64,000 nucleotides of DNA from Desulfosudaceae bacterium (GTDB lineage Bacteria; Desulfobacterota; Desulfobacteria; Desulfobacterales; Desulfosudaceae), in assembly GCA_963674745.2 (NCBI GenBank), contig CAXXDV010000001.1, positions 1,184,001 to 1,248,000 on the forward strand, read 5' to 3'. Each line of letters opens with the position of its first letter. Within the stretch, counting starts at the first letter, position 1. The notes beneath the pieces are model-generated. The model saw nothing but the letters and a program-made list of their open reading frames with translations, did not search any database and was not told the origin of the DNA. Below are positions 7,313 to 25,795 of this stretch, piece after piece. Position numbers and translations under genes: made by a program.

Positions 7313-7324
7313 AGGAGAAAAATT

Positions 7325-7765: not shown

Positions 7766-7833
7766 TCATATTCTTATCAATAATGCTCTCCAACACTCTG
7801 TCGGGGAGCATTATTATTTTTAGGAGGATAGAA

Positions 7834-8208
7834 ATGGATTCAAGAAAAAATTCACCGGTAATAACAGGCAAGGTAACTGATGATGATTGGCTAAACCTTT
7901 TTGCCAAAATTTATTTAGCTGACCTTTTTGTTATGCGCCGTGGTTGGGGTATGAGCTGGAACGCTTCTGACAGAGGCAGTTGCTTCAGAGAATGCATAGA
8001 TCATTTTATAAAGCATTACAGTTTACAAGCTGACTTTTGGGACATTGATAAAACCTATTCGGATAAGCTGAACGAATGGAAGGCCACTGAAAACATGACC
8101 GATGGTTTTATAAGGGCATCTATATCTATTATGAAAGAGGATCATGCTGAATTTACATTAGAAGAAGCAAAGAAAGAGTACGTTCGGCAGATACAGATCA
8201 CCAATTAA
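7834..8208 (+). CDS. Hypothetical protein
   Basis: AGGAGG RBS before MDSRKN. Confidence 0.65.
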   Translation: MDSRKNSPVITGKVTDDDWLNLFAKIYLADLFVMRRGWGMSWNASDRGSCFRECIDHFIKHYSLQADFWDIDKTYSDKLNEWKATENMTDGFIRASISIMKEDHAEFTLEEAKKEYVRQIQITN

Positions 8209-8273
8209 AACGAATAAATATTGAAGCGTCTCAGCTTACCTGCTGGGGAGCTTTTTCTTTAAAGGAGTAAAAA

Positions 8274-8828
8274 ATGAATACGACAAAATTAAGATCACCT
8301 CAAGAAGTTGCCCGAAGAGTTGCAGTATTAGGCAATTTGTTTTTCAAAACATTTGACTTTAACAATGAAAGTTACGTTAAATTTTTAAAGGAGAAAGGGT
8401 TGTGGAAAGACGCCTCTCCAGCAGAAAAATCTTTTTTTAGCCACTCAACCCCAAGTGAAAATGACATATACCTTGCAGCATGGAGGGCTGAAGCGGCCTG
8501 GGTCTTACTTTGGGCCTTAAACCAGGTTCCTGAATTGGGTAGCCCAGAGACAAGATGTGATATGACTTTTCTTGCCAAGACGATTCTTTTTATAAATATG
8601 TCTCCAGATGATTTCATTGAAAACGCGGTTCTAAGGCCAGTTGAAGAAATTGTTGAAGCGGCACATGATATTTATCACGCTCATTGGGCCGCACGTGACA
8701 GAGACTTAAGAGGCGTCACTAAATATGGGGATCTCAGCACGGATGTTTTAGACGAGAGGCACCATGCCATTAACTGGCTAATATGTTTCAATGATGACGA
8801 TTGGGATAATGTTATAACCGACACCTAA
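8274..8828 (+). CDS. DUF4272-like protein
   Basis: WRAEAAWVLLWAL, HWAAR, ERHHAINWL, C-terminal DWDNVITDT. Confidence 0.75.
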   Translation: MNTTKLRSPQEVARRVAVLGNLFFKTFDFNNESYVKFLKEKGLWKDASPAEKSFFSHSTPSENDIYLAAWRAEAAWVLLWALNQVPELGSPETRCDMTFLAKTILFINMSPDDFIENAVLRPVEEIVEAAHDIYHAHWAARDRDLRGVTKYGDLSTDVLDERHHAINWLICFNDDDWDNVITDT

Positions 8829-8860
8829 CTCATAGGTGCCGCAATCAGAACACCGCTATT

Positions 8861-8894
8861 AAAAAAGCCAGACTCTAACCAGGGCCTGGCTTTA
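8861..8894 (+). terminator. Intrinsic terminator
   Basis: AAAAGCCAG...CTGGCTTTT hairpin. Confidence 0.55.
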
Positions 8895-8975
8895 TTGTTT
8901 ACAGTCACCCCGTTCGATCTCCCTAGTCACATAGAACATATTAAAAAGGTCATTAATCATAAGGAGGATTGAATC

Positions 8976-9164
8976 ATGGCAAACAAGACACTTGTACCCT
9001 TAATGTTGTCGGTCCCTGAAGAAGTCAGGGATGAACTAAGAAGAATCGCGGCCCGGCAGAACCTGGAGAGAACAGACCGCGTCATTTCAGCGGCCGAGAT
9101 AGCCAGGGAAGTGCTGTGCATGCATTACAAAGAGTATATTACCGAGGAGAATAATAATGAGTGA
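8976..9164 (+). CDS. Small ribbon-helix-helix-like DNA-binding protein
   Basis: AAGGAGG RBS; LMLSVPEEVRDELRRIA..SAAEIAREVL strand-helix-helix pattern; overlaps the primase start. Confidence 0.55.
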   Translation: MANKTLVPLMLSVPEEVRDELRRIAARQNLERTDRVISAAEIAREVLCMHYKEYITEENNNE

Positions 9165-9891
9165 TTATTACACAAAACTAAAATCAAAAAATGACATATT
9201 GTCCGTGGCCTATAAATTAGGCTTTTCAGGGAAATCTTCAGGCCGTTGTACCCAAGGCGAATGTCCAAAACACGGCAGTTCTGGTAGAAAATGCCTGACA
9301 ATCTGGCCGGGCATACAGGGCTGGAAATGTTATCACTGCGGAGAATCTGGAGATGTTATCAATCTGGTAATGCATTACAAGAAGATGAGCCTGGTCGAGG
9401 CGGTAAATTATCTTGCCGATCAAGCCGGGATGCCACATCTAAACGGAAACGGCATGACGGAGGAAGAAAGGAAAAAGCTCGAGTCAGAGCAAAAAGAAAA
9501 GGCTCTTGTCTATGGCATGCTGACTACAGCTGCAGAATGGTACCATAAACAGCTTGAAAAACATCCTGATATCAAAGAGCACCTGTATAACCATTACGGT
9601 TTTTCCGAAGATATTATAGCGGAATTGCGGATCGGGTTTGCACCTCCGACGGAGAAGAAGCAGTCGGCCCTTGCGGACCATTTGAACTCCATAAGCAAAT
9701 ACAAAGGCCATATTACCAAAACAGGGTTGTTCAACTTCAAGAATCCAGCCGGGCCCTTCTGGGATTTCTTTAATGGCCGAATAATTTTCCCCTTTTGGAA
9801 AAACGGTATGGCCGTAAACCTGATAGGTCGGGCAACAGACAAAACACCGGAAAATCAATATGAATGTTATACAATGAAAGAAGAGGATTAA
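9157..9891 (+). CDS. DnaG-like primase N-terminal part (CHC2 zinc finger + N-terminal core)
   Basis: CPKH..WKCYHCG, GDVI, IGFAP, FNGRIIFP, LIGR. Confidence 0.85.
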   Translation: MSDYYTKLKSKNDILSVAYKLGFSGKSSGRCTQGECPKHGSSGRKCLTIWPGIQGWKCYHCGESGDVINLVMHYKKMSLVEAVNYLADQAGMPHLNGNGMTEEERKKLESEQKEKALVYGMLTTAAEWYHKQLEKHPDIKEHLYNHYGFSEDIIAELRIGFAPPTEKKQSALADHLNSISKYKGHITKTGLFNFKNPAGPFWDFFNGRIIFPFWKNGMAVNLIGRATDKTPENQYECYTMKEED

Positions 9892-9892
9892 A

Positions 9893-12115
9893 ATGGCAGA
9901 CTATATAAAATATAAGAAACTCAAACAGCACGACCCTGATGATGGGAAGCGTAAACACATCTCCCCCTATATTGAAAATTCGTTTGTTGGGGAAGACCAT
10001 ATTCGGGGGGAAAAGGAAATCATCATTACCGAAGGAATGCCGGACTGGATAAGCGCTGTTGATAAAGGGTTTGCAGCGGTATCTCCGGTCACTACGCGCT
10101 TTAAAGACGACGATATTAAACGGCTTGCCGAAATTACAGCAGGCGCCGAATCCATATATATTATAAACGACAATGAAACCAACCAGGCCGGTTATAAAGG
10201 CGCCTTAGAAACGGGTAAATACCTTAGCAAGACAGGAAAGAATATTTACCTTGTGGAGCTGCCCAGGCCGGAAGGCAAGGACAAAATTGACCTGAACGAG
10301 TATTTGCGTGATCATACCGCTGATGAACTCCGGGACTTGATGTCAGAGTCCAAGACTGTCCTGGAGATATTAATCGATTCCCTGCCAGAAGATTTGCCGA
10401 AGGCCTTACCCGAATTACGGAATGATATCCTGCCCATACTTATAGAGCTTGATGGTACCCTGCAAGACTATTATTCCAAGTTATCGTCCCAAAAAATAGG
10501 CTCTACTGTACCGAACATCAAAAAGGAAATCGAACAAGCGAAAAAACGGAAGGCTGAAAAAGAAAAAGCCGAAGACGTAAAGCCCGTTGACCCAGAAATT
10601 TTAAAGCAAGCAGAACAGATTGCAAAAGACCCCGGCCTGCTGAAAAAACGTATAGACCTTGTCAATCTTAGTGGTATTGTCGGCGAGCGTAATGTAATTG
10701 CCATGATTTTTGCCTGTATGGATTCAAGGTTGTTGCCCGATGATAATGTAAACCCAAACACATTGAACGTGAAAATAGCCGGGCATAGCGGCAGCGGTAA
10801 ATCCTGTATAGTCAAAAGCTGCTTAACCCTTTATCCGGAAAGCGTTTATAAGCTCATCACCAGCGCCAGTGAAAAGGCTTTATACCGCATGAGTACCGAC
10901 ATGAAACATAAAGCGTTAATTTTCGCAGAAGGTTTTCAGTTCCAGAGCAACAATGGCCAAGACTCAGAGATGGTTTATACTGTCAGATGTTTGCTGTCCG
11001 AGGGCCGGGTGTCATATCTGGTGACCGAAAAAAAGGAAGACGGCACTTTAGAAACAGCGGAAAGAAAACTCGAAGGCCCGACCAGTTTTTTAACCACGAC
11101 CATTAAAGAAAAACTTGAAGATCAATTAGAAGACCGTTTGTTTACAATACATCCGGACGAGTCCATGGAACAGAGCATGAACATTATCCGCGCATCGGCC
11201 AATCGCAAAGCGGGATTGATCTATGAAATTGATATTAAAACCATAAATGCCTGGAAAACGTTTCATGAAAATTTAAATCCGATCCAAATCGTCATCCCTT
11301 ATGCGCCGGCCATTGCTGATTATATCAACAAAAATGGTAAACCCCCTATTTCAATCCGGAGGGCGTATAACCGGGTGCTTTCGGTTATTCAAGCAATAAC
11401 CTGTGCCTATCAGCATCAAAGGAAAACTGATACGAATAACCGTAAGGTGGCTGAAATCGCGGATTACTGGATGGCATTACAGATCGTAAAAGAAGCATTC
11501 AAGGAAAATCTGGGACAGCAGAACATTAAAAATAACAAGCGAATAGAGCATATCAGGGATAATGAGCCGGTCAATTATAACGAACTTAAAGCTGTTTGGG
11601 GCATCAGTAAGCCGGCTGTTTCTCAATGGGTCTCGGCAAGGATTAAGGAGGGGGTGCTAGTTCGCTGCGATGACTGCGGCAATGAACTTGATGGCTCGTC
11701 TGAATCGAGGTCTTTGATAAAGTCGGGAAAAAGCTATGTCAAAGTCAGTGATGAATATGCGGATGATGAAGCGATTGGACTGCCCTCCCCTTATGAATTG
11801 TCGGGCGATGATGAATGGTCGGCCAGCGGAAAGCAATTGCATAAATATGATCTTAAAATTGATCATCAGGTATTAAGCAGTATTAAGCCGGTATTAAACG
11901 ACCAGCTTAATACCTCCGATGAGGATGAAAGGGTTAATAATATTAGTGATTCTGATGACACAGATGCCGGTATTAAGGTCTTAAGTGAAGATCCTGAGGA
12001 TAACGATAATATAATTGAATTAAATGAAAAGAAACAAATCGTAGATGATGAGGATGAATTAATGGAATGGCTTGGGCTTGGCACATCAAAAAACAGAAAA
12101 TCAGCATCATCATAG
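9893..12115 (+). CDS. Toprim domain + P-loop NTPase (primase-helicase C-terminal part)
   Basis: IITEGMPD, IINDNE, DLNEY (Toprim); GHSGSGKS Walker A; probable wHTH near the C-terminus. Confidence 0.85.
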   Translation: MADYIKYKKLKQHDPDDGKRKHISPYIENSFVGEDHIRGEKEIIITEGMPDWISAVDKGFAAVSPVTTRFKDDDIKRLAEITAGAESIYIINDNETNQAGYKGALETGKYLSKTGKNIYLVELPRPEGKDKIDLNEYLRDHTADELRDLMSESKTVLEILIDSLPEDLPKALPELRNDILPILIELDGTLQDYYSKLSSQKIGSTVPNIKKEIEQAKKRKAEKEKAEDVKPVDPEILKQAEQIAKDPGLLKKRIDLVNLSGIVGERNVIAMIFACMDSRLLPDDNVNPNTLNVKIAGHSGSGKSCIVKSCLTLYPESVYKLITSASEKALYRMSTDMKHKALIFAEGFQFQSNNGQDSEMVYTVRCLLSEGRVSYLVTEKKEDGTLETAERKLEGPTSFLTTTIKEKLEDQLEDRLFTIHPDESMEQSMNIIRASANRKAGLIYEIDIKTINAWKTFHENLNPIQIVIPYAPAIADYINKNGKPPISIRRAYNRVLSVIQAITCAYQHQRKTDTNNRKVAEIADYWMALQIVKEAFKENLGQQNIKNNKRIEHIRDNEPVNYNELKAVWGISKPAVSQWVSARIKEGVLVRCDDCGNELDGSSESRSLIKSGKSYVKVSDEYADDEAIGLPSPYELSGDDEWSASGKQLHKYDLKIDHQVLSSIKPVLNDQLNTSDEDERVNNISDSDDTDAGIKVLSEDPEDNDNIIELNEKKQIVDDEDELMEWLGLGTSKNRKSASS

Positions 12116-12386: not shown

Positions 12387-12524
12387 TTTAATTGTCAGAT
12401 AAAGCTATAATAAAACACCTGACAGCGCCGGCACCTGATACAAAAGTCCAGTCCTGAACGTTTAAGTCGCAGGGTGTTAAGGTGGTAAACGAGTGTGAGG
12501 GTAAAAAAACTCAGCTGAGGCATT

Positions 12525-12875
12525 TTATGGTTGTTCGCTTACCCATATGATTCGGCCATGCCTGATCCAAAAATGGCTTTGGCAACCAACTTTTCGCCAA
12601 ACCGAAGGATGAAGACTTACAACGTTCCTTTTATGAAAAGTGACTGACCATTTAGGCTTTTGATTGGGCATTAATCCCATATGCAGAGTTTCTCCACAAC
12701 CGCAGGGGCATATCATTGCAGAATACCAAAGAAAACCATTTTCCCCGATAATATAAAGCTTATTCTCCTCCAGTGAATCCGGTAGTTCCTCTGCTTGTAT
12801 AGCTGTAATGCTTCGTTTTCGATTTGTTAGCCTGTGGTAAACCCGTTTCAGCACCGCCCAGATTTTCATCATCAA
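12525..12875 (-). CDS. DUF6527-like Cys/His metal-binding protein
   Basis: CPCGCG..W..SLHPSVW..GCQSHFWIRHGRIIW. Confidence 0.8.
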   Translation of the reverse strand: MMMKIWAVLKRVYHRLTNRKRSITAIQAEELPDSLEENKLYIIGENGFLWYSAMICPCGCGETLHMGLMPNQKPKWSVTFHKRNVVSLHPSVWRKVGCQSHFWIRHGRIIWVSEQP

Positions 12876-14269
12876 TCCTTTTTACTGAGCGCTGGCATAT
12901 CTAAAAGAGGGCGGGTATCTCCCCGCCCTACCCATTTTTTAAACACATCACAAGGAGGGCCATCGGGTTCATGTACAAACAAACCCTCATTTAAAGAAAA
13001 TCTATATATGGCATATTCAGCGTTTGAATCATTTCGATATGGAATTATGCGCGCCAAGAGTTCATTGACACCGAATGAGGCAATAAGCATGTTAATCGAA
13101 ATTACAGCCGGTTTATCTTCATCGACACCTTCAATATATCCAGCCTTAAATTGATCATAGTAAGTCTCTGGATCGGAGTGCTTTAAGGCTTCTGCTCGCA
13201 GACGTTCTTGCGTATACACCCCTCGGCTTAACAAGCTTGACCCCCCAGGCTTTAGATAGTGTACGGTTCCGCACACATAATCAACGCCCCCTTCTCCATC
13301 CGCTAATAGTTTTACGCCAAGGTCAAAATATGGAATCAGATAGGTAGTTGCCAATTTGTTCAGGGTATGCCTACCATCAACGGTGTCCATACACCCAAAA
13401 AGAATGTCACAGGTTGAAAGGGTCTTGATAACTTTTTTGCTAAATAAATCCTCAGGGAAACATTCAACGCTTGTCCCAAACCCCATTGAATTTATATGGT
13501 CCGCCATAATTTCGACTTTAAATCTGCTCTGGAGAGCGTCATCCATAGTTGCCTGTGGGATTCGGTTTAAATTTTTTTCCTCAATTCTGTCAGGGTCTAC
13601 GATTACAAGGCTTCCGATGCAATTTCTTGCAAGTTGTTCGATAACAAGGCTTCCTGTCCCGGAACAACCGACAACGCCAATTTTTATTTTTCTTAATAGC
13701 TGGTATGTTTTATTTCCAAAAGCTTGAGCCAGTCTTACACCATATCGGTCCGGAGTTTTAGGCGGTGCTGAATCGTTATCGAACCAGAATTTGATATCAT
13801 TTCCGACAACTTTTATACACGAGATGGGTATAAATCCATTGTTACAGAAAGACCGTCCTATTAACCGCCCATCTTCAAGCATAATGACACTGGCATGTGG
13901 TACATCGTCAGAAGTCCAGATGTCAGTATAATTGAAAAACAAATTATCAGAGATATCATCTCTTGCCGAAAAATCCGCATAGCCGTTTGGATGGCTATGA
14001 ATTTTGACGACAGACAAGCTCTTTTTCTCGGCCTTTTCAAGTATTCCTGGTAAAAAATCAGTTCGCCATTTAATGTAGTCAGCTGTGCGTTCACAACAAC
14101 CCTCTGGAACCGATAATATTTCATTAACAAGAAGCCCATACGAACCATCTACTTGTCTTTGTCGGCAAAGCGCAAAAGCGATTGACTCAAAGCCATCTCC
14201 AGGAAATAGCAGCCTCTGAAGTCGTTTATAGTGGCTTTCTATCAAAGATAAAGTTAGTTCTTGCTTCAT
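12872..14269 (-). CDS. JAB peptidase-ThiF/E1 fusion
   Basis: N-terminal E..HSHP..FSARDD JAB motif; VVGCSGTGS, VDPD..NLNR, GCMD adenylation domain. ATGA overlap with the E2 stop. Confidence 0.88.
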   Translation of the reverse strand: MKQELTLSLIESHYKRLQRLLFPGDGFESIAFALCRQRQVDGSYGLLVNEILSVPEGCCERTADYIKWRTDFLPGILEKAEKKSLSVVKIHSHPNGYADFSARDDISDNLFFNYTDIWTSDDVPHASVIMLEDGRLIGRSFCNNGFIPISCIKVVGNDIKFWFDNDSAPPKTPDRYGVRLAQAFGNKTYQLLRKIKIGVVGCSGTGSLVIEQLARNCIGSLVIVDPDRIEEKNLNRIPQATMDDALQSRFKVEIMADHINSMGFGTSVECFPEDLFSKKVIKTLSTCDILFGCMDTVDGRHTLNKLATTYLIPYFDLGVKLLADGEGGVDYVCGTVHYLKPGGSSLLSRGVYTQERLRAEALKHSDPETYYDQFKAGYIEGVDEDKPAVISINMLIASFGVNELLARIIPYRNDSNAEYAIYRFSLNEGLFVHEPDGPPCDVFKKWVGRGDTRPLLDMPALSKKD

Positions 14270-14682
14270 GTTTTTTTTAGTTCCTGAAAGAGCCATTCAC
14301 CGACGAGGGTAATATGTGTTTCAATATTATCGATACCAATACGCCAAGGATTTTTATTGGTCCGGTGCCTTGACCAACGCTGCCAGGATTTCCCATCGAA
14401 CATTTCGTTTGATATAGCTTTTATTGCTCTGCCGTCATTTCGAGCTAAATCAGGATAAAAATATACCATGTCAATCTGGGTATCGGGATATGTACGATCA
14501 ATTCTGAGACGTACGTCAACAACCCGATGATTGTAACCCTTTGGAATTCGGTAACCATAAATAATTATGCTCTGGACTTTCCCTTCGGTGACGGCCTCCC
14601 ACGAGAGGTTAATGGAATTAAGAAAATCTCTGTCGTCTTCCGGTAAGTCGAAATCAAACCGCAGACCCTTACTATCCTTCAT
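14266..14682 (-). CDS. Prokaryotic E2/UBC-like protein (Cys-free)
   Basis: YRIPKGYN, YPDTQIDMVY, WQRWSRH, PWRIGID (Prok-E2 family E pattern). Confidence 0.8.
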   Translation of the reverse strand: MKDSKGLRFDFDLPEDDRDFLNSINLSWEAVTEGKVQSIIIYGYRIPKGYNHRVVDVRLRIDRTYPDTQIDMVYFYPDLARNDGRAIKAISNEMFDGKSWQRWSRHRTNKNPWRIGIDNIETHITLVGEWLFQELKKT

Positions 14683-14992
14683 TTAAATGTCGTCCTTCTG
14701 TTTGATCGAGCGGCAAAGTCATAAAACGCTCAACGCCAGGCTCCCGAAAATCAGCCGTTTGGTCTAATTCGATTTTTTTGGTCTGACCGCCATGAAGCTT
14801 TTGATATAAGGCAAATCGTTCAGGGGGTGTCTTGTCAGCGAGTTTTAAGATTTCTCGTCCGGTCATTTCTGGCACATCGACCACGAAATGCTGTTTATCA
14901 ATTCTGATTTTGTACTGTTTTGCAGTAGGGATTGGTTTACCTTCTTTGGCATACTGTTCCACATCAACCACTTCTTTAATTTCATTATCCAT
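14672..14992 (-). CDS. Multiubiquitin-family ubiquitin-like protein
   Basis: YKIRIDK..MTGREILKLA..DFREPGVERFMT..QTEG. Confidence 0.85.
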   Translation of the reverse strand: MDNEIKEVVDVEQYAKEGKPIPTAKQYKIRIDKQHFVVDVPEMTGREILKLADKTPPERFALYQKLHGGQTKKIELDQTADFREPGVERFMTLPLDQTEGRHLNEG

Positions 14993-15052
14993 TTTATATG
15001 TCCTCTTTTATTAATTTTGGTGTTCAGGGCTCGCCGTAACGAGCCCCGATTT

Positions 15053-15226
15053 CTATCTTTCCTTTCTGACACCTTTAAAAGGCTTTCTATCGCTTTTTTG
15101 ATCGATGAATCTCCCGGATTCAGTATCCCGCTTTGTCCATCTATCCGTTTTGGGGTTATAGGCTTGTGAACGATCACGAACCGCCCCGATCCTTCTACCG
15201 TCGCCGGTCGGTGGATTTGTGGCCAT
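15053..15226 (-). CDS. Small basic 57-aa protein
   Basis: Strong AGGAGGTG RBS; MATNPPTGDGRRIGAVRDRSQ..PFKGVRKER. Confidence 0.7.
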   Translation of the reverse strand: MATNPPTGDGRRIGAVRDRSQAYNPKTDRWTKRDTESGRFIDQKSDRKPFKGVRKER

Positions 15227-15265
15227 TCTGCTCACCTCCTTTCTATATGAAATGCATCCCTGCCC

Positions 15266-15295
15266 ATCTGGTTCATTGAACACGATGAACCAGAT
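15266..15295. promoter_or_regulatory. Palindromic operator A
   Basis: ATCTGGTTCA-N10-TGAACCAGAT, part of a perfect 13-bp inverted repeat upstream of the small-protein/Ubl operon. Confidence 0.65.
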
Positions 15296-15307
15296 GGTAA
15301 AAAATTT

Positions 15308-15850
15308 TTACTTAATACGAAAATATACAAATTCAATACCACCTGAAGATGCCAATTCTTCCTGCCTCAACAAAAACCCTTTTTCCCACAAGTATTTTAG
15401 TTTTGAGCTTGCGTTAGTTAGTTTTAAATTCAATTTTTCTGCAGCCTTAACCGTAGTAATCGAAGGAACGGATAAAGCATAGTCCAGTAAATCAACGGTT
15501 CCACGGGTTGGTTGAACACCCAAAAGCTGATATCCTATTTTGTCCCAAACAATTATGGGCTGATTCTTTTTTTCGGCTGCGTATGACCAGTTATCCAACA
15601 AATCGGAATCGGTAACATCAGTCAGACAAAAGCCTTTATCACCACGATATTTCTTTGCAATTTCAATCACACTCTCGCGTGGGAAAGAAGCATCAGTATG
15701 TTGCACTCCTTCAAGTGAGACCTGAAAAATCTTTTTCCCAGGATTATTTTTTACAAGATCCAAAAGCCTTATATAAACTTTTTGACCTTGCTTGTGACCC
15801 CAGCCGTCAGGGCTATCCATTAAGTCTCTTAAACGAATAATCTGATTCAT
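15308..15850 (-). CDS. STAS-like (DUF4325-like) + winged-HTH regulator (CapS-like)
   Basis: VSLEGVQHTDASF STAS motif; C-terminal AAEKLNLKLTNASSKLKYLWEKGFL..GGIEFVY wHTH. Start uncertain (15850, 15859 or 15886). Confidence 0.7.
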   Translation of the reverse strand: MNQIIRLRDLMDSPDGWGHKQGQKVYIRLLDLVKNNPGKKIFQVSLEGVQHTDASFPRESVIEIAKKYRGDKGFCLTDVTDSDLLDNWSYAAEKKNQPIIVWDKIGYQLLGVQPTRGTVDLLDYALSVPSITTVKAAEKLNLKLTNASSKLKYLWEKGFLLRQEELASSGGIEFVYFRIK

Positions 15851-15869
15851 TGAATACATTGAACCAGAT
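15840..15869. promoter_or_regulatory. Palindromic operator B
   Basis: ATCTGATTCATTGAATACATTGAACCAGAT, 26/30 identical to operator A. Overlaps the regulator's start codon; a minus-strand TTGACA lies at 15881-15886. Confidence 0.65.
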
Positions 15870-16787
15870 TTATTTTTGCCTGTCAAGGAAAAAATCGAAA
15901 TTAATTTGAGTACCGTGAATTTTGGGGAGAGATTCGTAACAATACGCGGTGCTTCGATATGTTCCTGACGAAGGCTCTAAGCACAAACAACTATTGGGTA
16001 GCCTTATGGTTAGATTTGCTTTGTATTTTAATGCTTTTTCAGCACTTTGCTTTAATCCGCAGCCGCGATTGGTACCATGTCGTGATACTCCTCTCCGAAA
16101 TACTTCTAATAACAATTCGGTGTCAGATAATTTAGAAAGGCTTGGAAATTCTACTGATAAAGAGGGCCTTAATGTTTGTAGAATTCCCTTACCACTATCT
16201 GATACAATCACTTTTATCTTACTTCCTCCTTTATAAACCTGCAAAGCAGCGTATCCATCTAATTCGGTTGAACTGTGCTCAAAAATATTATCGATTAGCT
16301 CACCAAATACGGTAAAAGCGGCATTTCTTAACAATTGGCAATCAGGCCTTTCAACAATAGCTTCTTTAAGCGTATCTGCAAGCGTACTTGGAAGGTTCTC
16401 ATCACGTGAATTTGGGTTTATGCTTTTTATTTCAACAAGACCAGGATTCTTACCCCCATAAACTTTCGCACCTGAATAGAAAGGCCGTTCAGGAAAAACA
16501 TCGATTTTATCATTCAAGAAATCAAAAAAGCCCATACGATTTAAATATCCCAAAGCTCCATACTCATCCTCCTCGAATTGCAAAATAACTTTTTTCCCAA
16601 AAAAGTTTAATTGATTTGCAAAGCTTAATAAAATAACTCCAGCATCAACCATTATTTTGCACCTTTCTGGAACTTGAAAAATAACCTCTTTAACAGACCG
16701 GTGAAAATAGTTTGATGAGGAAAGAGCTCCTTGAAAATCCAAGCAGTTAATCCATTTGGGGGGTAAAAGTATAGTTAATGATTTCAT
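15870..16787 (-). CDS. Anti-sigma-factor-like HATPase kinase with N-terminal STAS-like domain (CapK-like)
   Basis: YLNRMGFF, ELIDNIFEHS (N box), VSDSGKGI (G1), RGCGL (G2), GTQI. Confidence 0.8.
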   Translation of the reverse strand: MKSLTILLPPKWINCLDFQGALSSSNYFHRSVKEVIFQVPERCKIMVDAGVILLSFANQLNFFGKKVILQFEEDEYGALGYLNRMGFFDFLNDKIDVFPERPFYSGAKVYGGKNPGLVEIKSINPNSRDENLPSTLADTLKEAIVERPDCQLLRNAAFTVFGELIDNIFEHSSTELDGYAALQVYKGGSKIKVIVSDSGKGILQTLRPSLSVEFPSLSKLSDTELLLEVFRRGVSRHGTNRGCGLKQSAEKALKYKANLTIRLPNSCLCLEPSSGTYRSTAYCYESLPKIHGTQINFDFFLDRQK

Positions 16788-16868: not shown

Positions 16869-18209
16869 CTAAGCATTAAACGCCTCTTTGATAACCACCT
16901 GCATGAGCATTTCGGAATTCTGCTGTGCGTTTGAGATTTGGATTTCGATCCTTGATAAATATTCAAAAGAGTAATCCAATTTTTTTATGATTTCTCTTTG
17001 TTCATCGAATGGTGGAACCGGAATCAGGTATGAAACAATATTTTTAATATTAATCCTTGGTGAGGCTGCTCCAGCCAATGATTTGTTAATATGTGACCAT
17101 ATAACTTGTGACTTTAGAAAATAATTTAAAAATCTGGCACCAATGGTGGAATATGACCTGAAAAGCATAACCCGCTGTCCTAAGCATAACGGCTCCTTGC
17201 AGTCAATTATTGAAGATATCCCTAATCGTCCTCCCTCACGGATATAGATAATATCTCCTTGTTGAGGGACTAACCGTGATACTCTCTTTTCATACTCTTT
17301 TTGATCAACAAATTTAGCACTATCGAAATTGAGCCCATTATCAGTAATATTTTGAGAAAGTACGCATAGGTAACCATTTTGTGTATATTTCGGAGTGGAA
17401 TGAGGACAATCGACATATAAAAGATTAAAATCTTCTATATGTGCCCAAACCCAGCCTTTGGGCAGTTCAAACGGGATTTCATCTTCTGTGATCGGCGGCA
17501 GGGGTTTTTGTCTTTTTATTTTCTTTGCTTTTACCAGGCGGTCTTTTTCGGCCTTAATACGTTTTAGGAGTTCGGAGGCCGGCTCAGCGTGAGAATTATC
17601 TCTGCGCCATTGTTCGGTCAATTTTCCGGAAATGGCGTCATGTAAAATAGATTGGCGAATTTTTTTTAAGAGGGATTGCTGGCGGGTAACTTCATCCTCA
17701 AGTTCGGCAATAGCACATCTGGATTTGTGGGTCTGGGAGGAAATCCTATTCTGCTTTTGGGTAGAAATGCCCGGAATTTTCATGTCTAAAAAGATTCTCT
17801 CTTTGAATCGATTTCGACTTATTCCGGAAACCCCCTTGCTCATCCGGTTAACATAATCAATATTTGAGGGTAAAAGAATGTAATCAAGAAGATAGTTTAT
17901 ATTAATTTCCGTTTGGTCATATGTAAAAACAGGAAATTCATTTGAAACCAGGCACCCATCGAATTCTTTTTCTATAATTGCGAAAGAGCTTTTCCATGCA
18001 AATAATCGATTGTATATAAAATCACCTGTTTTAACCCGATACAATTTTTTTGCTTTTATATCTCCACCGGTTTTTTCTTCTCTGACAAAAGCACCTTTGC
18101 CGTACCATTTAACTCCTAAAAGCTTATATGTTGTGTTGTTGTCCAGAATCACTTCTCTTTTGATCTGTTTAAGAAAAGTCCCGATGGTCGGGTTTTGGTT
18201 AGTTTTCAT
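16869..18209 (-). CDS. hsdS: Type I R-M specificity subunit
   Basis: Two TRDs, central EPASELLKRIKAEK..IPFELPKGWVW, IPVPPFDEQ; coupled to hsdM (TAATG). Confidence 0.9.
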   Translation of the reverse strand: MKTNQNPTIGTFLKQIKREVILDNNTTYKLLGVKWYGKGAFVREEKTGGDIKAKKLYRVKTGDFIYNRLFAWKSSFAIIEKEFDGCLVSNEFPVFTYDQTEININYLLDYILLPSNIDYVNRMSKGVSGISRNRFKERIFLDMKIPGISTQKQNRISSQTHKSRCAIAELEDEVTRQQSLLKKIRQSILHDAISGKLTEQWRRDNSHAEPASELLKRIKAEKDRLVKAKKIKRQKPLPPITEDEIPFELPKGWVWAHIEDFNLLYVDCPHSTPKYTQNGYLCVLSQNITDNGLNFDSAKFVDQKEYEKRVSRLVPQQGDIIYIREGGRLGISSIIDCKEPLCLGQRVMLFRSYSTIGARFLNYFLKSQVIWSHINKSLAGAASPRINIKNIVSYLIPVPPFDEQREIIKKLDYSFEYLSRIEIQISNAQQNSEMLMQVVIKEAFNA

Positions 18210-19636
18210 TAAACAAGCTCCCTTTTCAGCTTGTTTAATATTTCATCGCTTTTCTTAAATGAAGCATGTAACATATCTATGAGTTCGGCTGTAGTAAGCG
18301 TATCTTCTTCCGTTGCTTTGTGGGGATTCTTGATGTCCAGATCCCAGCCCCGATTGACGATGTTCTCAATGGGCACTTTCCAGGCGAGCTCTGATTCTTT
18401 GCGTTTGTTCCACCATTTTTTGATTGGATCAAATTCCTCGACTTTGATGGGCCTGGTTTTGCTATAGGACTTCTGGTCTTTGGGAAGCTGGTGTTCATAA
18501 TACCAGACTTCTTTGGTGGGTCTACCTTTTTCAAAAAAAAGCAGGTTGGTGGCAACAGAAGCATAGGGCTTAAACACCGAGTTGGGCAGGCGGACAATCG
18601 TATGTAAGTTGCAGTCGGTGAGCCATTTTTCCCGAACACGCTGCTTGACCCCGTCACCAGTCAGGGAGCCGTCCGGCAGCACAATGCCGGCTCGACCGCC
18701 GCTTTTCAACAACCGGATCATTAAAATCAAAAACAGGTCGGCAGATTCCTTGGTGCGAAAATTTTTAGGAAAGTTTGCTTCATACCCATTGGCCACCACA
18801 CCACCAAATGGCGGGTTAGTCAGGATGACATCGACTTTGTCGGCCTGCCTATATTCGTTTAACGGCCGGCTTAACGAATCGTCAAACGAAAGGCGGGGAA
18901 CTTCCATGTCGTGAAGAATTAAATTGGTGGTAGCCAATAAAAATGGCAACGGTTTGTATTCCCAGCCGCAAACATTTTCCTGTAGCTTTTTACGCTGTGA
19001 GGCTCGGGTAATCTGTTGTTTCAAATGCTCGATGGTACAGGTGAGAAAGCCACCGGTGCCGCAAGCCGGATCCAGGATTTTCTCTCCCAGCTGGGGGTCG
19101 ATCATATCAGTAATAAACTGTGTGACCGCCCGGGGGGTATAAAACTCACCGCTTTTGCCGGCGCTTTGCAATTCCTTTAATATGCCTTCATAAATATCAC
19201 CAAACAGATGACGTTCTTCGGCCACATTAAAATCCAGTTCATTGAGCTTGTTCAGCACCCGGCGAAGGTTAATGCCGGACTTCATATAATTATGGTTGCC
19301 GTCAAACACGCTTCGAATGATTAACGCCCGTTTGTTGCCGGTAGAAACATCCAGATTTTTTAAATCCGGAAAGAGCTTCTGATCAACAAAGGCGAGCAAT
19401 TCATCGCCGGTCATACCCTCGTCATCACCAGCCCAGTTGTCCCAGTGATATGTCGCCGGCAAGGGCGAAACATAGTTTTCCTCCAGCAGTTCCAGTTCTT
19501 TTTCCTTGTCCGACAATACTTTTAAAAATATCATCCAGCCCAGTTGTTCGATGCGCTGAGCGTCTCCGTTTAAACCGGTGTCTTCCCACATGATGTTTCG
19601 GATGGTTTTCATCAATCCGCTTAAGTTCAGGCTCAT
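18209..19636 (-). CDS. hsdM: Type I R-M N6-adenine methyltransferase
   Basis: GEFYTPR, DPACGTGGFL, TNPPFG. Confidence 0.95.
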   Translation of the reverse strand: MSLNLSGLMKTIRNIMWEDTGLNGDAQRIEQLGWMIFLKVLSDKEKELELLEENYVSPLPATYHWDNWAGDDEGMTGDELLAFVDQKLFPDLKNLDVSTGNKRALIIRSVFDGNHNYMKSGINLRRVLNKLNELDFNVAEERHLFGDIYEGILKELQSAGKSGEFYTPRAVTQFITDMIDPQLGEKILDPACGTGGFLTCTIEHLKQQITRASQRKKLQENVCGWEYKPLPFLLATTNLILHDMEVPRLSFDDSLSRPLNEYRQADKVDVILTNPPFGGVVANGYEANFPKNFRTKESADLFLILMIRLLKSGGRAGIVLPDGSLTGDGVKQRVREKWLTDCNLHTIVRLPNSVFKPYASVATNLLFFEKGRPTKEVWYYEHQLPKDQKSYSKTRPIKVEEFDPIKKWWNKRKESELAWKVPIENIVNRGWDLDIKNPHKATEEDTLTTAELIDMLHASFKKSDEILNKLKRELV

Positions 19637-19639
19637 TTA

Positions 19640-22144
19640 CTATGCTGCTCCTGTTGTGTATATCTCTTGTTCAAGCTCATTGACCGCTTTAACATAATCG
19701 GCTTTTTCACCAAATTCTCGAATGATCTGTATAGGGGATCCAAATCGGTCAAAGGGTGTAATTTTTAAAATGCTTATATCTTCGATCTGGCTGATACCTT
19801 CATCCGCGTATTTGTCTAATAGAGATTCAAGCACCTTACGTGCGCTTTCGCCGTATTTTGTGAAATAATTTCGCTTTTTAACGTTATTGGCCCGCTCTTT
19901 TCGGGTTAGCGGCGGCATGTCCCAGGCCACATGACAGATAATGTCAAACAGATCACACTCCCGATTAACTGCTTCCAACAGGTCATCCACCAGCACTCCT
20001 TGCTCCCGCAGTTCCTCAACAATGACCTGTTTTTTCTCCGCACCGGTCCATTGACGCAGGAATTCATCTAGACTCCGATATTGGTGTAAAATCTGTTGGC
20101 GAGTAAACTCCTTTAGGCTCATGGTAATTGGTCTGCCTTCCTGGTCAAAATATATTTCACGGGAATATAATTCACTGACGTCCACACCATTGACAAAAAC
20201 CTTGTTAGCCGTCGATCTTACACTTGTGTCCGGTTCATCAGTCAAACCTTCCGGGATTTCCGGATAATCCGTTGATTCAGTATCTTGACCCGGCAACTCC
20301 TCAAAACCGGTTATTTCTTCACCGTCTTCTTCGTCAAGAATAGAGATTTCCGCATTTTCTTCTTCTGTTTCAATATCGCTTATATTTTCATCTTCTTGAA
20401 CCTGTTTAATACGGACCGGGTCGCCGTCAAACGCTGGGTCTGAAAATAGGTCTGTGACATTGCGAAAATCAAGAATCGTAAAATACCTTTTGCCATACTC
20501 TTCGTTAATTCGTGTTCCCCGACCGATAATCTGTTTAAACTCGGTCATGGATTTGATATTGCTGTCCAGCACAATTAGTTTACAGGTCTGTGCATCGATA
20601 CCGGTATTCATGAGTTTTGAAGTGGTAGCGATAACGGGGTGGCACTGATCCGGGTCGATAAAATTATCCAACTCCCGCTTGCCTTCTTCGTCATCCCCGG
20701 TGATTTTCATTACATATTTATCATTTTCTTTAACAAGATCGGCGTTGGCGTTACTGATTTCCCGGCGCATACCGTCCGCATGTTCAATGTCCTGGCAGAA
20801 GACAATCGTTTTTGCAAACCGGTCCGTGCCCTTTAAAAATTCGGTAATCTTTCGAGCCACCAATTCCCGGCGCTCATCAACCACAAGGTTCCTGTCAAAA
20901 TCCGAGCGGTTGTAAAGACGGTCCTCAACGGGATCGCCATTCTTATCCAGATAACCAGCAGGCGGCCGCCAGCCATCGAGGTCAATATCTATACCAATAC
21001 GCACCACGCGGTAAGGCGCAAGAAATCCGTCGCTGATACCCTGACGGAGTGAATAAACGGAAATGGGATCACCAAAATATTCGATATTTGAAACCTCGCT
21101 GGTTTCCTTGGGTGTGGCGGTAAGACCAATATGGGTAGCACTGCTGAAGTAATCCAGAATACGGCGCCAGGCACTATCTTCCGCTGCGCTGCCCCGATGA
21201 CATTCGTCGACAATAACAAGGTCAAAAAAGGAGGGGCTGAAATCTTTATAGGCGTCTTCCGTTTCATTAGCATTGGTCAGGCCCTGGTAAAGGCCAAGAT
21301 ATATTTCATAAGCCTTATCTGATGAATCTATGCCTCGTTTCTTGTTTGAAACCAGAAACTCTTTCCCATCATCTCTAGTGATCACAGTTTTTTTGATGAC
21401 GGTCATTTTGTCTTTGAAATGTTTAAAATCATTTCTGCGAGGCTGATCAATAAGTGCTGTCCGATCGGCTAAAAAAAGTATTCTTTTTTTTGCGCCGGAT
21501 TTCCACAAGCGATGAATTATCTGAAATGCAGTATAGGTTTTTCCGGTTCCGGTGGCCATAACCAGCAGAATCCGATTTTCTCCTCTGGCGATTGCTTCGA
21601 CTGTTCGGTTAATGGCGATCTGTTGATAATAGCGTGGGGTTTTCCCGCTGCCGTCAAAAAAATAATCCTGGGAGGCGATCCTTTCTTGTTCCGGGGTATT
21701 GATGCCCTTGTATTTTTTATAAATCTTCCAGAGTTCAGCTGGGCCGGGAAACTGGTCGTTGGTCAATTCTTTTTCTATGATTTCCTTTGCGGTGCGGTCG
21801 TGGAAGATAAACCCATCACCGTTGCTGCTAAAAACACAGGGGATGTCCAGAATCCGGGCATATTCCAATGCCTGCTGCATACCGGCACCAATTGGATGGT
21901 TATTCTCCTTGGCCTCGATAACCGCAACAGGGATATTGGGCTTATAGTATAAAATATAATCCGCACGCTTCCTTTTACCTCGCGCAGTCAAGTGTCCTCG
22001 GACATAAATCCGCCCATCGGTGAAGGGAAACTCTTCCCGGACTTGTGTTTGAATATTCCACCCAGCCTGTTCTATGGCAGGAGTGATAAATTTAGTGCAA
22101 ATGTCACGTTCAGTAAGGGATTTTTTATCTGTTTTATCGTTCAT
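19640..22144 (-). CDS. hsdR: Type I restriction endonuclease R subunit (EcoAI/EcoEI-like)
   Basis: ADYIL..IEAK nuclease, MATGTGKT, DECHRG, LTATP, QIIGRGTR. Likely start MNDKTD. Confidence 0.95.
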   Translation of the reverse strand: MNDKTDKKSLTERDICTKFITPAIEQAGWNIQTQVREEFPFTDGRIYVRGHLTARGKRKRADYILYYKPNIPVAVIEAKENNHPIGAGMQQALEYARILDIPCVFSSNGDGFIFHDRTAKEIIEKELTNDQFPGPAELWKIYKKYKGINTPEQERIASQDYFFDGSGKTPRYYQQIAINRTVEAIARGENRILLVMATGTGKTYTAFQIIHRLWKSGAKKRILFLADRTALIDQPRRNDFKHFKDKMTVIKKTVITRDDGKEFLVSNKKRGIDSSDKAYEIYLGLYQGLTNANETEDAYKDFSPSFFDLVIVDECHRGSAAEDSAWRRILDYFSSATHIGLTATPKETSEVSNIEYFGDPISVYSLRQGISDGFLAPYRVVRIGIDIDLDGWRPPAGYLDKNGDPVEDRLYNRSDFDRNLVVDERRELVARKITEFLKGTDRFAKTIVFCQDIEHADGMRREISNANADLVKENDKYVMKITGDDEEGKRELDNFIDPDQCHPVIATTSKLMNTGIDAQTCKLIVLDSNIKSMTEFKQIIGRGTRINEEYGKRYFTILDFRNVTDLFSDPAFDGDPVRIKQVQEDENISDIETEEENAEISILDEEDGEEITGFEELPGQDTESTDYPEIPEGLTDEPDTSVRSTANKVFVNGVDVSELYSREIYFDQEGRPITMSLKEFTRQQILHQYRSLDEFLRQWTGAEKKQVIVEELREQGVLVDDLLEAVNRECDLFDIICHVAWDMPPLTRKERANNVKKRNYFTKYGESARKVLESLLDKYADEGISQIEDISILKITPFDRFGSPIQIIREFGEKADYVKAVNELEQEIYTTGAA

Positions 22145-22278
22145 TTGAATATAATATTTGCATAGAACGTAATAATTTGAAAGTATTATAATTAAACTCA
22201 ATATTATTACAAATTTAAATTGAGTTAAAGGCTAACTTATAATTACTTCTGCATTATTATATCCAATTTGAGGTTATA

Positions 22279-25643: not shown

Positions 25644-25795
25644 ATATTCGCCTATAATAATATATCTTATGATTATATATTGTGTTGAGACAAAGCCAAC
25701 ATCATTCAATATTTTTGGGTTATATGCAGCTTTTGCATGCAGCTATCACTCAAATTCCCCTTTGATTTATTCCTTTTTAGTGACTAACAATTTAA

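Follow-up and report, generated by a model that had tools for sequence, protein, structure and literature searches.

The locus described here is very probably a complete Type I Bub operon (Bub, bacterial ubiquitination-like; 6E.1, formerly 6E.1/DUF6527) of the subclass in which the ubiquitin-like protein (Ubl) and the E2 are encoded by separate genes, placed under a predicted CapK/CapS switch, with a restriction-modification (R-M) system upstream, in an island on the side of a tRNA-Ala gene. As predicted from its sequence, it is a new example of an already described, cysteine-independent tagging system and not a new kind, and it contributes neither new chemistry nor new architecture. To our knowledge, the Bub pathways are the sole Ubl conjugation pathways that run wholly on oxyester (Tyr, Ser) intermediates, all others using thioesters.

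Four Overlapping Genes Encode the Domains of Type I Bub

Within the window, i.e., the whole 64-kb stretch of DNA that was analyzed, an ORF check confirmed the four overlapping genes of a preliminary description of this DNA. All four (bubA, bubB, bubCD and bubE) are co-directional on the minus strand, with listed overlaps of 11 nt (bubA/bubB), 31 nt (bubB/bubCD) and 4 nt (bubCD/bubE):

14672..14992, minus strand: bubA, single-domain Ubl, 106 aa (PF14452 Multi_ubiq, 2.7e-17; reactive Gly100, then RHLNEG)
14266..14682, minus strand: bubB, Cys-free E2, 138 aa (PF14462 Prok-E2_E, 2.3e-36; Ser104, His106, Asp71)
12872..14296, minus strand: bubCD, JAB/JAMM peptidase fused to a ThiF-type E1, 474 aa (PF00899 ThiF, 1.8e-25; PF14464 Prok-JAB, 3.5e-4)
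12525..12875, minus strand: bubE, DUF6527 protein, 116 aa from TTG (PF20137, 6.8e-23; C4 zinc site, Ser91-His101 dyad)
12502..12527, no strand: palindrome with a T-run, probable operon end (repeat search; weak; directly 3' of the bubE stop)

For bubCD, the ATG at 14269 is a likelier start than that at 14296; it would yield a protein of 465 aa and overlap the bubB stop as ATGA. For bubE, the ATG at 12872 is likelier than the TTG. A terminator scan returned nothing convincing after bubE and did not pick up the palindrome at 12502..12527, and a sigma-70 promoter scan gave 15 sites against 11.4 +/- 3.1 expected.

Every reported Pfam match of these genes exceeded its curated cut-off save Prok-JAB on BubCD (20.9 bits versus a 25-bit cut-off). 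PADLOC and HMM classification had been proposed as a check at the outset. The Pfam families match the Bub domains; PADLOC-DB 2.0.0 made no Bub call for the operon. It has no model recognizing BubA, BubB or BubE, and its only matches to BubCD were generic Cap2-type "E1-E2" models, which covered just the adenylation core. Related loci were collected with an alignment-based search, a single-protein BubCD search of genome contigs having yielded no confirmed relative; the survey reported below comprises the 80 best related loci.

The reference system for Type I Bub is BubAB-BubCD-BubE of Citrobacter sp. RHBSTW-00271 (Ye, Gong, Chambers and Corbett; preprint PMC11601596; PDB 9EA4, 9EA8, 9EAE and 9EAV). 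Residues 18-471 of BubCD matched the crystal structure of Citrobacter BubCD (PDB 9ea4_A) with E=7.5e-78. The JAMM site is intact, consisting of E37 plus HSHPNGYADFSARD at residues 100-113 (H100, H102, S110 and D113), and the adenylation Arg245 and the crossover-loop Tyr387 (in GYIEGV) align to Citrobacter R227 and Y370. Under one constant offset, the four published Citrobacter residues E28, D104, R227 and Y370 equal E37, D113, R245 and Y387. The JAMM residues, Arg245 and Tyr387 are invariant among 30 homologues and in all 80 of the best related loci. The crossover loop contains no Cys, the sole Cys in residues 340-400 being C342, which precedes the loop. The preliminary description had drawn attention to the sequence PGGSSLLS in the E1, at a position where ThiF enzymes usually have CxxC. 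The motif is indeed present (residues 350-357, N-terminal to the crossover loop) and is conserved in BubCD, with P350, G352 and S353 invariant among the 30 homologues; what was missed is Tyr387, since the catalytic E1 residue of Bub is published as the crossover-loop Tyr (Citrobacter Y370; PMC11601596).

The E2 was correctly described as lacking Cys (it has none) and as carrying WQRWSRH. BubB matched Citrobacter BubB (PDB 9eav_D) with E=1.6e-20, the QRWSRHR motif being identical, and its S104, H106 and D71 align to Citrobacter S333, H335 and D299; this D/S/H set is retained in 79/80 of the best related loci. S333 is the residue published as the site of the Ubl~Ser oxyester (PMC11601596), so that the alignment of the WSRH serine with it agrees with the serine-oxyester pathway that had been predicted.

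BubA, which also has no Cys, could be aligned over residues 26-99 with residues 4-77 of the 78-residue Citrobacter BubA 155-229 chain (PDB 9ea8_B; E=7.1e-5), an alignment that sets G100 opposite the last residue of the Citrobacter chain. Its C-terminus reads DQTEG-RHLNEG in translation, as first noted, i.e., G100 is followed by a tail of six residues. LPLDQTEG is near-invariant among the 120 BubA relatives listed. The RHLNEG tail is unusual for a standalone Ubl: 92 of the 120 standalone relatives listed stop exactly at the Gly of DQTEG. The suggestion that the fused JAB domain would trim this tail is a sound one, since Citrobacter BubCD is reported in the preprint to cleave BubAB directly after the equivalent Gly.

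BubE has only four Cys, C56, C58, C60 and C98 (TTG numbering), within CPCGC...C.SH. The spacing of these residues and of S91 and H101 matches that of C57, C59, C61, C99, S92 and H102 in Citrobacter, and of 80 BubE sequences aligned from related loci, 79 show the pattern C,C,C,S,C,H.

Separate Ubl and E2 Genes, and Comparison with Known Systems

The locus resembles Citrobacter Type I Bub in having the same four domains in the same order, with a JAB-E1 fusion, a Cys-free E2 bearing Ser-x-His plus Asp, a crossover-loop Tyr, an adenylation Arg, an intact JAMM site and a DUF6527 protein with a C4 zinc site and Ser-His dyad. It differs in that Citrobacter makes Ubl and E2 as one BubAB polypeptide, whereas here they are two ORFs in different frames that overlap by 11 nt; in that the Ubl has one beta-grasp domain rather than three; and in that the Gly is followed by six residues rather than by a whole E2. 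The regulator also differs, being a predicted CapK/CapS pair here, whereas the table columns of PMC11601596 cover CapH, CapP and CapW only. In the text of PMC11601596 all Type I operons are said to encode a BubAB fusion; however, Table S1 of the same work files operons with separate Ubl and E2 genes (31/139) as Type I, so that the fusion is not defining in the authors' own catalogue. The present operon is identical in layout (Ubl, E2, DUB+E1, DUF6527) to these separate-gene entries, e.g., those of Alicyclobacillus ferrooxydans and Hyphomicrobium denitrificans, although most separate-gene Type I Ubls end at Gly and lack a tail. Among the 80 best related loci, 31 share this four-gene layout. The term "Bub-like variant" used in the preliminary description is therefore not upheld: every catalytic feature tested is that of Type I Bub, and separate genes were already in Table S1. 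The A. ferrooxydans Ubl was found among the BubA relatives (P0113).

We considered whether separate bubA and bubB might be the product of a frameshift or sequencing error in a BubAB fusion, leaving a damaged operon. The Ubl frame does run 11 nt into bubB before two stop codons close it, and the two frames are one base apart; close relatives include fused forms, one of which (P0003, 77% identical) continues into an E2; and the preprint text describes Type I as fused. However, bubB begins with an ATG of its own, which directly follows an in-frame TAA and lies 10 nt after a Shine-Dalgarno-like GAAGGA, and in addition to the related loci and catalogued operons counted above, 50 of the 150 best E2 representatives are stand-alone genes. 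An origin from a fusion would still leave two complete products, separated where the fusion is in any case reported to be cut. We therefore rejected an error of this kind as highly improbable. A ThiS/MoaD-type sulfur carrier for cofactor biosynthesis, with a ThiF-like enzyme that only adenylates the beta-grasp protein, was rejected even more firmly, its probability being negligible. The E1 does match the NCBIfam ThiF/MoeB models (TIGR02356, 6.8e-17; NF006395, 1.4e-16), but all of these matches fall far below their cut-offs and its full-length match is BubCD; moreover, the operon includes an E2, a JAMM peptidase and DUF6527, and the adjacent DNA has no sulfurtransferase, thiamine or molybdopterin genes.

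The separate-gene Type I assignment also distinguishes the locus from other conjugation systems. Type II Bub (6E.2; E. coli ZDHYS365 BubA-BubBD-BubE) shares the E2 Ser and E1 Tyr oxyesters, the DUF6527 protease and frequent CapK/CapS control, but has an E2-E1 fusion, usually without JAB, and pairs the Ser with Lys and His rather than with the His and Asp of Type I. Type II was rejected for the present locus, where the 138-aa E2 has a gene to itself and a JAB domain forms the N-terminal part of the E1 protein. Bil (bacterial ISG15-like) systems and Type II CBASS Cap2/Cap3 likewise use E1/E2/JAB machinery to conjugate a protein C-terminus and lie in defense islands; unlike the present system, they use catalytic cysteines and thioesters and lack DUF6527, and in Bil the JAB protein is separate and the E1 contains a Cys domain. 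Bil was rejected because neither the E2 nor the E1 crossover loop contains Cys here, and JAB is fused to the E1.

A Predicted CapK/CapS Switch and a Small Gene Upstream of bubA

Upstream of bubA lie two predicted regulatory genes, two operator-like sites and a small gene:

15870..16787, minus strand: capK, predicted GHKL kinase, 305 aa (HATPase_c, 4.5e-5; immediately upstream of capS)
15308..15886, minus strand: capS, STAS-wHTH repressor (PDB 9z72_A, E=1.4e-43; 9z71_A, E=2.8e-39)
15846..15863, no strand: operator-like site 1, at the capK/capS junction and overlapping the capS ATG (24/28 bases identical to site 2)
15264..15297, no strand: operator-like site 2, just 3' of the capS stop (perfect inverted repeat of 13 nt, spacer of 8 nt)
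15053..15226, minus strand: 57-aa gene, PADLOC candidate PDC-S38 (PDLC05010, E=5.3e-33), between capS and bubA
15024..15049, no strand: GC-rich hairpin between the 57-aa gene and bubA, without a T-run on the operon strand

The structures matched by CapS are those of V. cholerae CapS S58A (9z72_A) and E. roggenkampii CapS (9z71_A). Ser67 (in TDASF; TTG numbering) is the predicted phospho-acceptor; it lies opposite the mutated Ala of 9z72, assuming the two-residue chain offset seen for BubCD. The ATG at 15859 is likelier than the TTG as the capS start. The HATPase_c match of CapK scored 24.3 bits against a Pfam cut-off of 26.4, and searches for PDB sequence matches and NCBIfam families returned none for this protein. 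Its position directly before capS nevertheless agrees with the published definition, and a homologue (E=1.7e-45) occurs in a related locus with the order capK-capS-S38-BubAB (L067).

Published CapS operators are palindromic, with 1 or 10 bp between their TTAA half-sites, and lie where capK meets capS and again downstream of capS (Chambers et al., EMBO J 2026, PMC13373217; PDB 9Z71-9Z73). The two sites found here have the published positions and 1/10-bp spacings, with TTCA/TGAA half-sites instead of TTAA. Site 2 holds both TTCA-N10-TGAA and TTCA-N1-TGAA at 15272-15289, and TTCA-N10-TGAA occurs just twice in the window, at sites 1 and 2. The L067 locus has an 11-nt inverted repeat with an 8-nt spacer and TTAA-N10-TTAA right after its capS stop, i.e., the geometry of site 2. 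Because the half-sites are TTCA/TGAA and not the published TTAA, CapS is only predicted to bind at these sites. In other respects the switch resembles the published one, with a predicted GHKL-kinase gene immediately followed by a STAS-wHTH gene, a conserved STAS Ser, palindromes at both places, R-M upstream and Bub downstream; besides the half-sites, it differs in the insertion of the 57-aa gene between capS and Bub and, if capS begins at ATG 15859, in a capK-capS gap of 8 nt.

A strong AGGAGG ribosome-binding site precedes the 57-aa gene, which probably opens the CapS-controlled transcript. Relatives of its product form 1578 clusters, nearly all of 57 aa, and in 3 of the 80 best related loci the gene likewise immediately precedes bubA(B). 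Searches of Pfam and NCBIfam assigned the protein to no family, its ESM Atlas clusters are labeled just "hypothetical protein," and a literature search on the name "PDC-S38" returned nothing. An AlphaFold2 model (mean pLDDT 75.9) predicts a four-strand beta meander, for which a search of PDB folds gave no match at E<=0.001 (best E=1.5).

The Operon Lies in a Defense Island

The location in a defense cluster that had been proposed was borne out. A Type I R-M system (16869..22201) lies directly upstream of capK, as context outside the Bub operon:

16869-18209, minus strand: hsdS (Pfam; PADLOC Specificity_I, 1.4e-66)
18209-19636, minus strand: hsdM (Pfam; PADLOC MTase_I, 1.5e-190)
19640-22201, minus strand: hsdR (Pfam; PADLOC REase_I, E=0)

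A Ser/Thr kinase resembling PD-T4-6/mad6 is encoded further on, as is a PD-(D/E)XK nuclease accompanied by a UvrD/GajB-like helicase. Among 443 published capKS loci, R-M is upstream in 88 and Bub downstream in 231 (PMC13373217).

The low-GC stretch that holds the Bub and defense genes starts beside a tRNA-Ala gene (4342-4417) and an integrase gene (4476-5654). BubCD was found at E<=1e-20 in none of 40 relatives (2 of the same genus, 10 of the same family and 28 of the same order). Taken with the low GC and the tRNA-Ala and integrase genes, this pattern is consistent with horizontal acquisition. A search of the window for an att repeat of the tRNA-Ala gene that would delimit the island (exact words of >=16 nt, both strands) gave none.

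Proposed Mechanism and Biological Role

If it works like its homologues in Citrobacter and E. roggenkampii, the locus would operate as follows. CapS dimers on the two palindromic operators (one where capK meets capS, the other upstream of the 57-aa gene) would repress transcription until single-stranded DNA arising from DNA damage activates the CapK kinase, which would phosphorylate CapS at Ser67 and so de-repress the operon. BubA would be made with its six-residue tail, and the JAMM domain of BubCD would cut after Gly100. The E1 domain would then adenylate Gly100, using Arg245, and carry the Ubl on the crossover-loop Tyr387 as an oxyester. From there the Ubl would pass to Ser104 of BubB, forming a second oxyester with the help of His106 and Asp71, and on to lysines of target proteins. 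Finally, BubE, as a zinc-stabilized Ser91-His101 protease, would strip the conjugates.

The last of these steps departs from the preliminary description, in which DUF6527 was an E3-like or substrate-selecting factor. According to the preprint (PMC11601596), BubE is a protease that uses a Ser-His dyad to take apart conjugates of BubA with its targets, and both S91/H101 and the C4 site are present here. A ligase or substrate-selecting role, whether replacing the protease role or adding to it, could still be argued, given that the Ser-His pair lies beside the BubA C-terminus in the published AlphaFold models, an arrangement that fits Ubl transfer as well as proteolysis, and that the published in vitro proteolysis is weak and slow, needing 48-hour incubations. 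For Bub, moreover, neither an E3 nor a target is known, and the earlier statement that the system has no established target still holds. However, the preprint reports cleavage of BubA-GFP by BubE that was lost in S92A and H102A mutants, and co-expression of BubE in cells almost abolished BubA-target conjugates, which is the reverse of what a ligase would be expected to do; we therefore regard an E3-like role as improbable. As to the purpose of the pathway as a whole, a role distinct from its chemistry, it could be anti-phage defense or a DNA-damage stress response. A stress pathway that tags host proteins would fit with the sensing of DNA damage by CapK/CapS via single-stranded DNA, and with the conjugation of Citrobacter BubA to E. 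coli proteins in cells without phage, as the preprint describes; the authors themselves raised this possibility, reporting no Bub operon that protected E. coli from phage. On the other hand, CapKS control CBASS and Thoeris too (PMC13373217), and the present locus sits inside a mobile island together with Type I R-M, the PD-T4-6-like kinase and the nuclease-helicase pair, with the patchy distribution noted above. We consider a stress role in place of defense a serious but less than even possibility.

The JAMM Domain in the Separate-Gene Subclass

All 31 separate-gene loci (among the 80 best related loci) keep the JAMM catalytic residues unchanged, even though 24 of these 31 encode a Ubl that already ends exactly at the reactive Gly. 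This argues for a second JAMM substrate, e.g., Ubl-target or Ubl-Ubl conjugates, and we tentatively suggest that in separate-gene Type I Bub the JAMM domain of BubCD may have a role beyond Ubl maturation. If so, separate-gene systems would possess a metalloprotease as well as the Ser-His protease BubE for deconjugation, two enzymes of distinct kinds. At the present locus, on the same premise, the six-residue tail would make Ubl charging JAMM-dependent, and the conserved 57-aa PDC-S38 gene, sharing its CapS-type operator with the operon, would be induced along with it as an additional component. Invariance of the JAMM site where the Ubl needs no processing could refine the published model, if modestly. 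The locus is a clean example of this less-studied subclass and, because it combines a single-domain Ubl, a short natural tail, an intact predicted CapK/CapS switch and an R-M neighbor, a handy compact system for separating the roles of JAB and BubE.

The Operon Is an Intact, Ordinary Member of the Bub Family

Operons of the "6E/DUF6527" type were given the name Bub by Ye, Gong, Chambers and Corbett (PMC11601596). The operon studied here is an intact, ordinary member of that described family and is located behind a described regulator. The preliminary description had placed four minus-strand ORFs in this region, and all four were found where it had placed them:

14672-14992, minus strand: bubA, Ubl gene; 106 aa; Pfam Multi_ubiq, 2.7e-17
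14266-14682, minus strand: bubB, E2 gene; 138 aa; Pfam Prok-E2_E, 2.3e-36
12872-14296, minus strand: bubCD, JAB-E1 fusion gene; 474 aa; Pfam ThiF, 1.8e-25, and a sub-threshold Prok-JAB match, 3.5e-4
12525-12875, minus strand: bubE, DUF6527 gene; 116 aa; Pfam DUF6527, 6.8e-23

In a search against solved structures, the E1 matched Citrobacter BubCD (9ea4_A) over residues 18-471 (E = 7.5e-78), the E2 matched Citrobacter BubB (9eav_D; E = 1.6e-20) with the motif QRWSRHR identical, and residues 26-99 of the Ubl aligned with positions 4-77 of the 78-residue chain of Citrobacter BubA 155-229 (9ea8_B; E = 7.1e-5). The original call of a Bub-like system was right. Two ideas attached to it find no support in the published data. 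One was that the operon is a variant, but operons with separate Ubl and E2 genes already appear in Table S1 of PMC11601596; the other was that BubE is E3-like, but that paper shows it to be a Ser-His protease that strips conjugates. As described there, the Ubl is carried by a crossover-loop tyrosine of the E1 and by a serine of the E2, both intermediates thus being oxyesters, and in Type II Bub the Ubl and BubE accompany a fused E2-E1 protein.

The bubB ATG lies within the final codons of bubA, 3' of a GAAGGA stretch, the bubB stop is joined by an ATGA overlap to an ATG at 14269, and the bubCD-bubE junction reads TGATG; these junctions look like translational coupling along the operon. Because homologues are about 465 aa long, the ATG at 14269 is the likelier bubCD start. 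Residue numbering follows the ORFs as listed; the shorter starts would lower it by 9 in BubCD and by 1 in BubE.

The Catalytic Residues Are Conserved

The motifs WQRWSRH, PGGSSLLS (residues 350-357), DQTEG-RHLNEG and CPCGC...C.SH, all noted from the sequence beforehand, were present, and the E2, said to lack cysteine, contains none; the Ubl also has none and BubE exactly four. ThiF/MoeB enzymes usually carry CxxC pairs in the region corresponding to PGGSSLLS. While the presence of this motif was correctly noted, its position precedes the crossover loop, and it is Y387 that has the catalytic role. Among BubCD proteins PGGSSLLS is conserved, with P350, G352 and S353 invariant in 30 homologues, and no cysteine occurs in the E1 crossover region past C342.

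The published BubCD residues E28, D104, R227 and Y370 (PMC11601596) sit on E, D, R and Y of the deposited chain at index+2, and their counterparts in the alignment are E37, D113 (in HSHPNGYADFSARD, residues 100-113), R245 (NLNRI) and Y387 (GYIEGV). Similarly, S104, H106 and D71 of BubB align with Citrobacter S333, H335 and D299, while C56, C58, C60 and C98 of BubE, together with S91 and H101, correspond with identical spacing to Citrobacter C57, C59, C61 and C99, and S92 and H102.

On contigs from one genome per species, 536 loci encoding BubCD relatives were confirmed, and we surveyed the best 80 of them. In these best 80, the JAMM residues, R245 and Y387 were unchanged in every locus, the other loop tyrosines, Y361 and Y379, being replaced by Phe in four loci each. 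The BubB D/S/H set was retained in 79 of the 80 (the odd one has E/S/H). All of the 80 aligned BubE sequences but one, which is truncated, kept the set C, C, C, S, C, H. The E2 domains contained from zero to four cysteines each, with none in 34 of 81, so that there is no conserved E2 cysteine.

Separate Ubl Genes and the Role of the JAMM Domain

Table S1 of PMC11601596 contains 139 Type I operons, with 106 annotated "Ub+E2 fusion" and two "Ub missing"; this leaves 31 in which the Ubl and the E2 each have a gene identifier of their own, and the Ubl/E2 split is not new. Our own counts agree with that table. BubA and BubB were encoded upstream on the same strand in all of the best 80 of 536 loci (49 fused, 31 separate), with BubE downstream in 79, and the best 150 of 570 members of the E2 family (E<=0.001) comprised 84 fused, 50 standalone, 13 partial and three intermediate forms. 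The nearest BubA relatives differ from one another, P0002 (83% identical) having a tail of four residues and P0003 (77% identical) being fused; conversion between the fused and the split form is therefore easy.

Among 498 candidate BubA relatives, 496 had E<=0.001, and tails were counted in the best 120 standalone sequences. The Ubl ended exactly at ...LPLDQTEG in 92 of these 120 (90 by pattern, plus P0025 and P0068 by reading), carried a tail of 1-15 residues in 26, including bubA of the window, and continued into an E2 domain in two. Since 92 of the best 120 end at this point, the glycine that reacts would be G100, with G106 at the terminus incidental, and the RHLNEG tail would, judging from these relatives, have to be removed. 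Citrobacter BubAB is cut by the BubCD JAMM domain immediately past the equivalent Gly, the only demonstrated activity of this kind in PMC11601596, whose authors propose that the JAB domain may act "primarily or solely" in BubAB cleavage. Within the best 80 of 536 loci, the Ubl already ended at the reactive Gly in 24 of the 31 with separate genes (the rest having tails of two residues in four, three residues in one and ten residues in one, with one undetermined), and the JAMM site was intact in all 31. Retention of the JAMM site beside Ubls that already end at the reactive Gly suggests, from these sequences, that the domain may have an additional substrate, a small step beyond the proposal in PMC11601596.

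A Probable CapK/CapS Switch with Two Putative Operators Precedes the Operon

CapK (an HTH-STAS-GHKL kinase) and CapS (a STAS-wHTH repressor) constitute a DNA-damage switch (Chambers et al., EMBO J 2026, PMC13373217). Directly upstream of the operon is a 192-aa CapS, matching V. cholerae CapS (9z72; E = 1.4e-43) and E. roggenkampii CapS (9z71; E = 2.8e-39), both crystal structures according to the data availability statement of PMC13373217; its S67 (TDASF) lies opposite the S58A mutation of 9z72. The capS gene is preceded by a candidate capK (305 aa; GHKL match sub-threshold), and that by a Type I R-M system. Of 443 capK-capS pairs reported in PMC13373217, 231 have a Bub operon after them and 88 have an R-M system directly upstream, so the whole layout seen here is already published. 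Two palindromes are located where CapS binding was mapped in that work:

15846-15863, no strand: putative CapS operator site 1, where capK meets capS, spanning the capS ATG at 15859
15264-15297 (core 15272-15289), no strand: putative CapS operator site 2, just 3' of the capS stop

The 28-nt stretches containing them are identical at 24 of 28 bases. The pattern TTCA-N10-TGAA has just two matches in the 64-kb window, which are these two putative operators, and each also contains TTCA-N1-TGAA. The 1 bp and 10 bp spacings are those of the "narrow" and "wide" palindromes in PMC13373217, although the half-site is TTCA/TGAA here and TTAA in the published operators. L067, a related locus with the order capK-capS-small gene-BubAB-BubCD-BubE, has TTAA-N10-TTAA at the corresponding position immediately 3' of capS.

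A -10-like TTCAAT is present inside both putative operators, and site 1, which extends over the start codon of capS, lies 17 nt after a TTGACA hexamer. This arrangement hints that the capS mRNA may have a very short leader, or be leaderless.

A 57-Residue Gene Lies between capS and bubA

15053-15226, minus strand: 57-aa ORF between capS and bubA; PADLOC candidate family PDC-S38, E = 5.3e-33

This gene is preceded by the second putative CapS palindrome and a strong AGGAGG site. Its family comprises 1578 clusters at E<=0.001; the 120 listed are 75-100% identical, almost all 57 aa long, and called "hypothetical protein" wherever the source names members. It has no Pfam family, and its model, a small four-strand beta meander (pLDDT 75.9), gave no fold match in the PDB. 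Of the 80 Bub loci in the survey, three (L002, L043 and L067) have the gene directly upstream of bubA(B), so it does not belong to Bub systems in general.

When 400 further genomes from this phylum were searched, six carried the gene, which there adjoins a TIR-Schlafen pair (L089), HTH regulators (L090 and L091) or an HTH-M78 protein (L093), lies beside a CapK-like kinase, a Bro-N protein and a Type III R-M system (L092), or has non-defence neighbours (L094). It was also found in 74 viral-contig loci, forming 44 groups by downstream sequence. Among the 85 of 122 neighbouring ORFs run against Pfam were HTH-Peptidase_M78 proteins (L114, L115, L141, L147), LexA-like S24 repressors (L113, L125, L137, L157), antirepressors (L120, L126, L127), TIR proteins (L097, L116) and a WYL protein (L136). 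This suggests a small gene travelling with DNA-damage-responsive switches. Across prophage and island loci it adjoins CapK/CapS, HTH-M78, LexA-like and WYL regulators, with TIR, R-M or Bub as defence cargo.

In L091 (positions 7046-9347; genome G135, same phylum), the 57-aa gene is followed by another kind of Ubl-type operon, consisting of a 110-aa beta-grasp-like ORF, an E2-like ORF (weak Prok-E2_E match, 3e-5; WSRN instead of WSRH) and a 475-aa JAB-E1 with a CLSC motif. A search of this region with the BubE profile did not find DUF6527, and the operon may be a relative of Bub that lacks BubE.

The Operon Lies in a Genomic Island

4342-4417: tRNA-Ala, followed by an integrase at 4476-5654
24352-25224, minus strand: Ser/Thr protein kinase; PADLOC mad6, 3.2e-42, and PD-T4-6, 5.5e-33
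30739-33416, plus strand: PD-(D/E)XK (Cas4-like) nuclease, then UvrD-type helicase (GajB model, 1.2e-89)

GC content drops from about 0.53 to about 0.40 at the island, which also carries a primase-like pair, an ISL3 transposase, the PD-T4-6/mad6-like kinase, SSB, RadC and the nuclease-helicase pair. BubCD was not found at E<=1e-20 in 40 relatives, of which two share the genus, ten the family and 28 the order; an att repeat was looked for and none was found. The defence cluster recognized at the outset is borne out by the Type I R-M system upstream and by the kinase and nuclease-helicase pair of the island.

The kinase is flanked by ORFs without a family (23201-24355 and 25224-25709), with the ISL3 transposase (25907-27115) adjacent, and it may represent a second module for defence within the island. 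The nuclease-helicase pair, near which lie SSB (29261-29614) and RadC (36072-36578), could be a defence pair or replication-recombination genes of an ICE or prophage.

A DnaG-type primase (9157-12115, plus strand) is apparently split over two adjacent ORFs, a 244-aa protein with the zinc ribbon and the N-terminal part of the catalytic core, then a 740-aa Toprim-containing protein. These converge on the Bub operon, ending about 400 nt from the end of bubE. This form is characteristic of replication modules in satellites or islands. At 48007-57370, where the GC content is the lowest in the window (0.30-0.36), a run of large plus-strand ORFs without a Pfam or PADLOC family (48007-50022, 50019-51500, 51485-52450 and 54791-57370) surrounds a sigma-54 activator/RtcR-like AAA protein (53022-54794, plus strand; PADLOC RtcR_PspF2, 1.6e-67).
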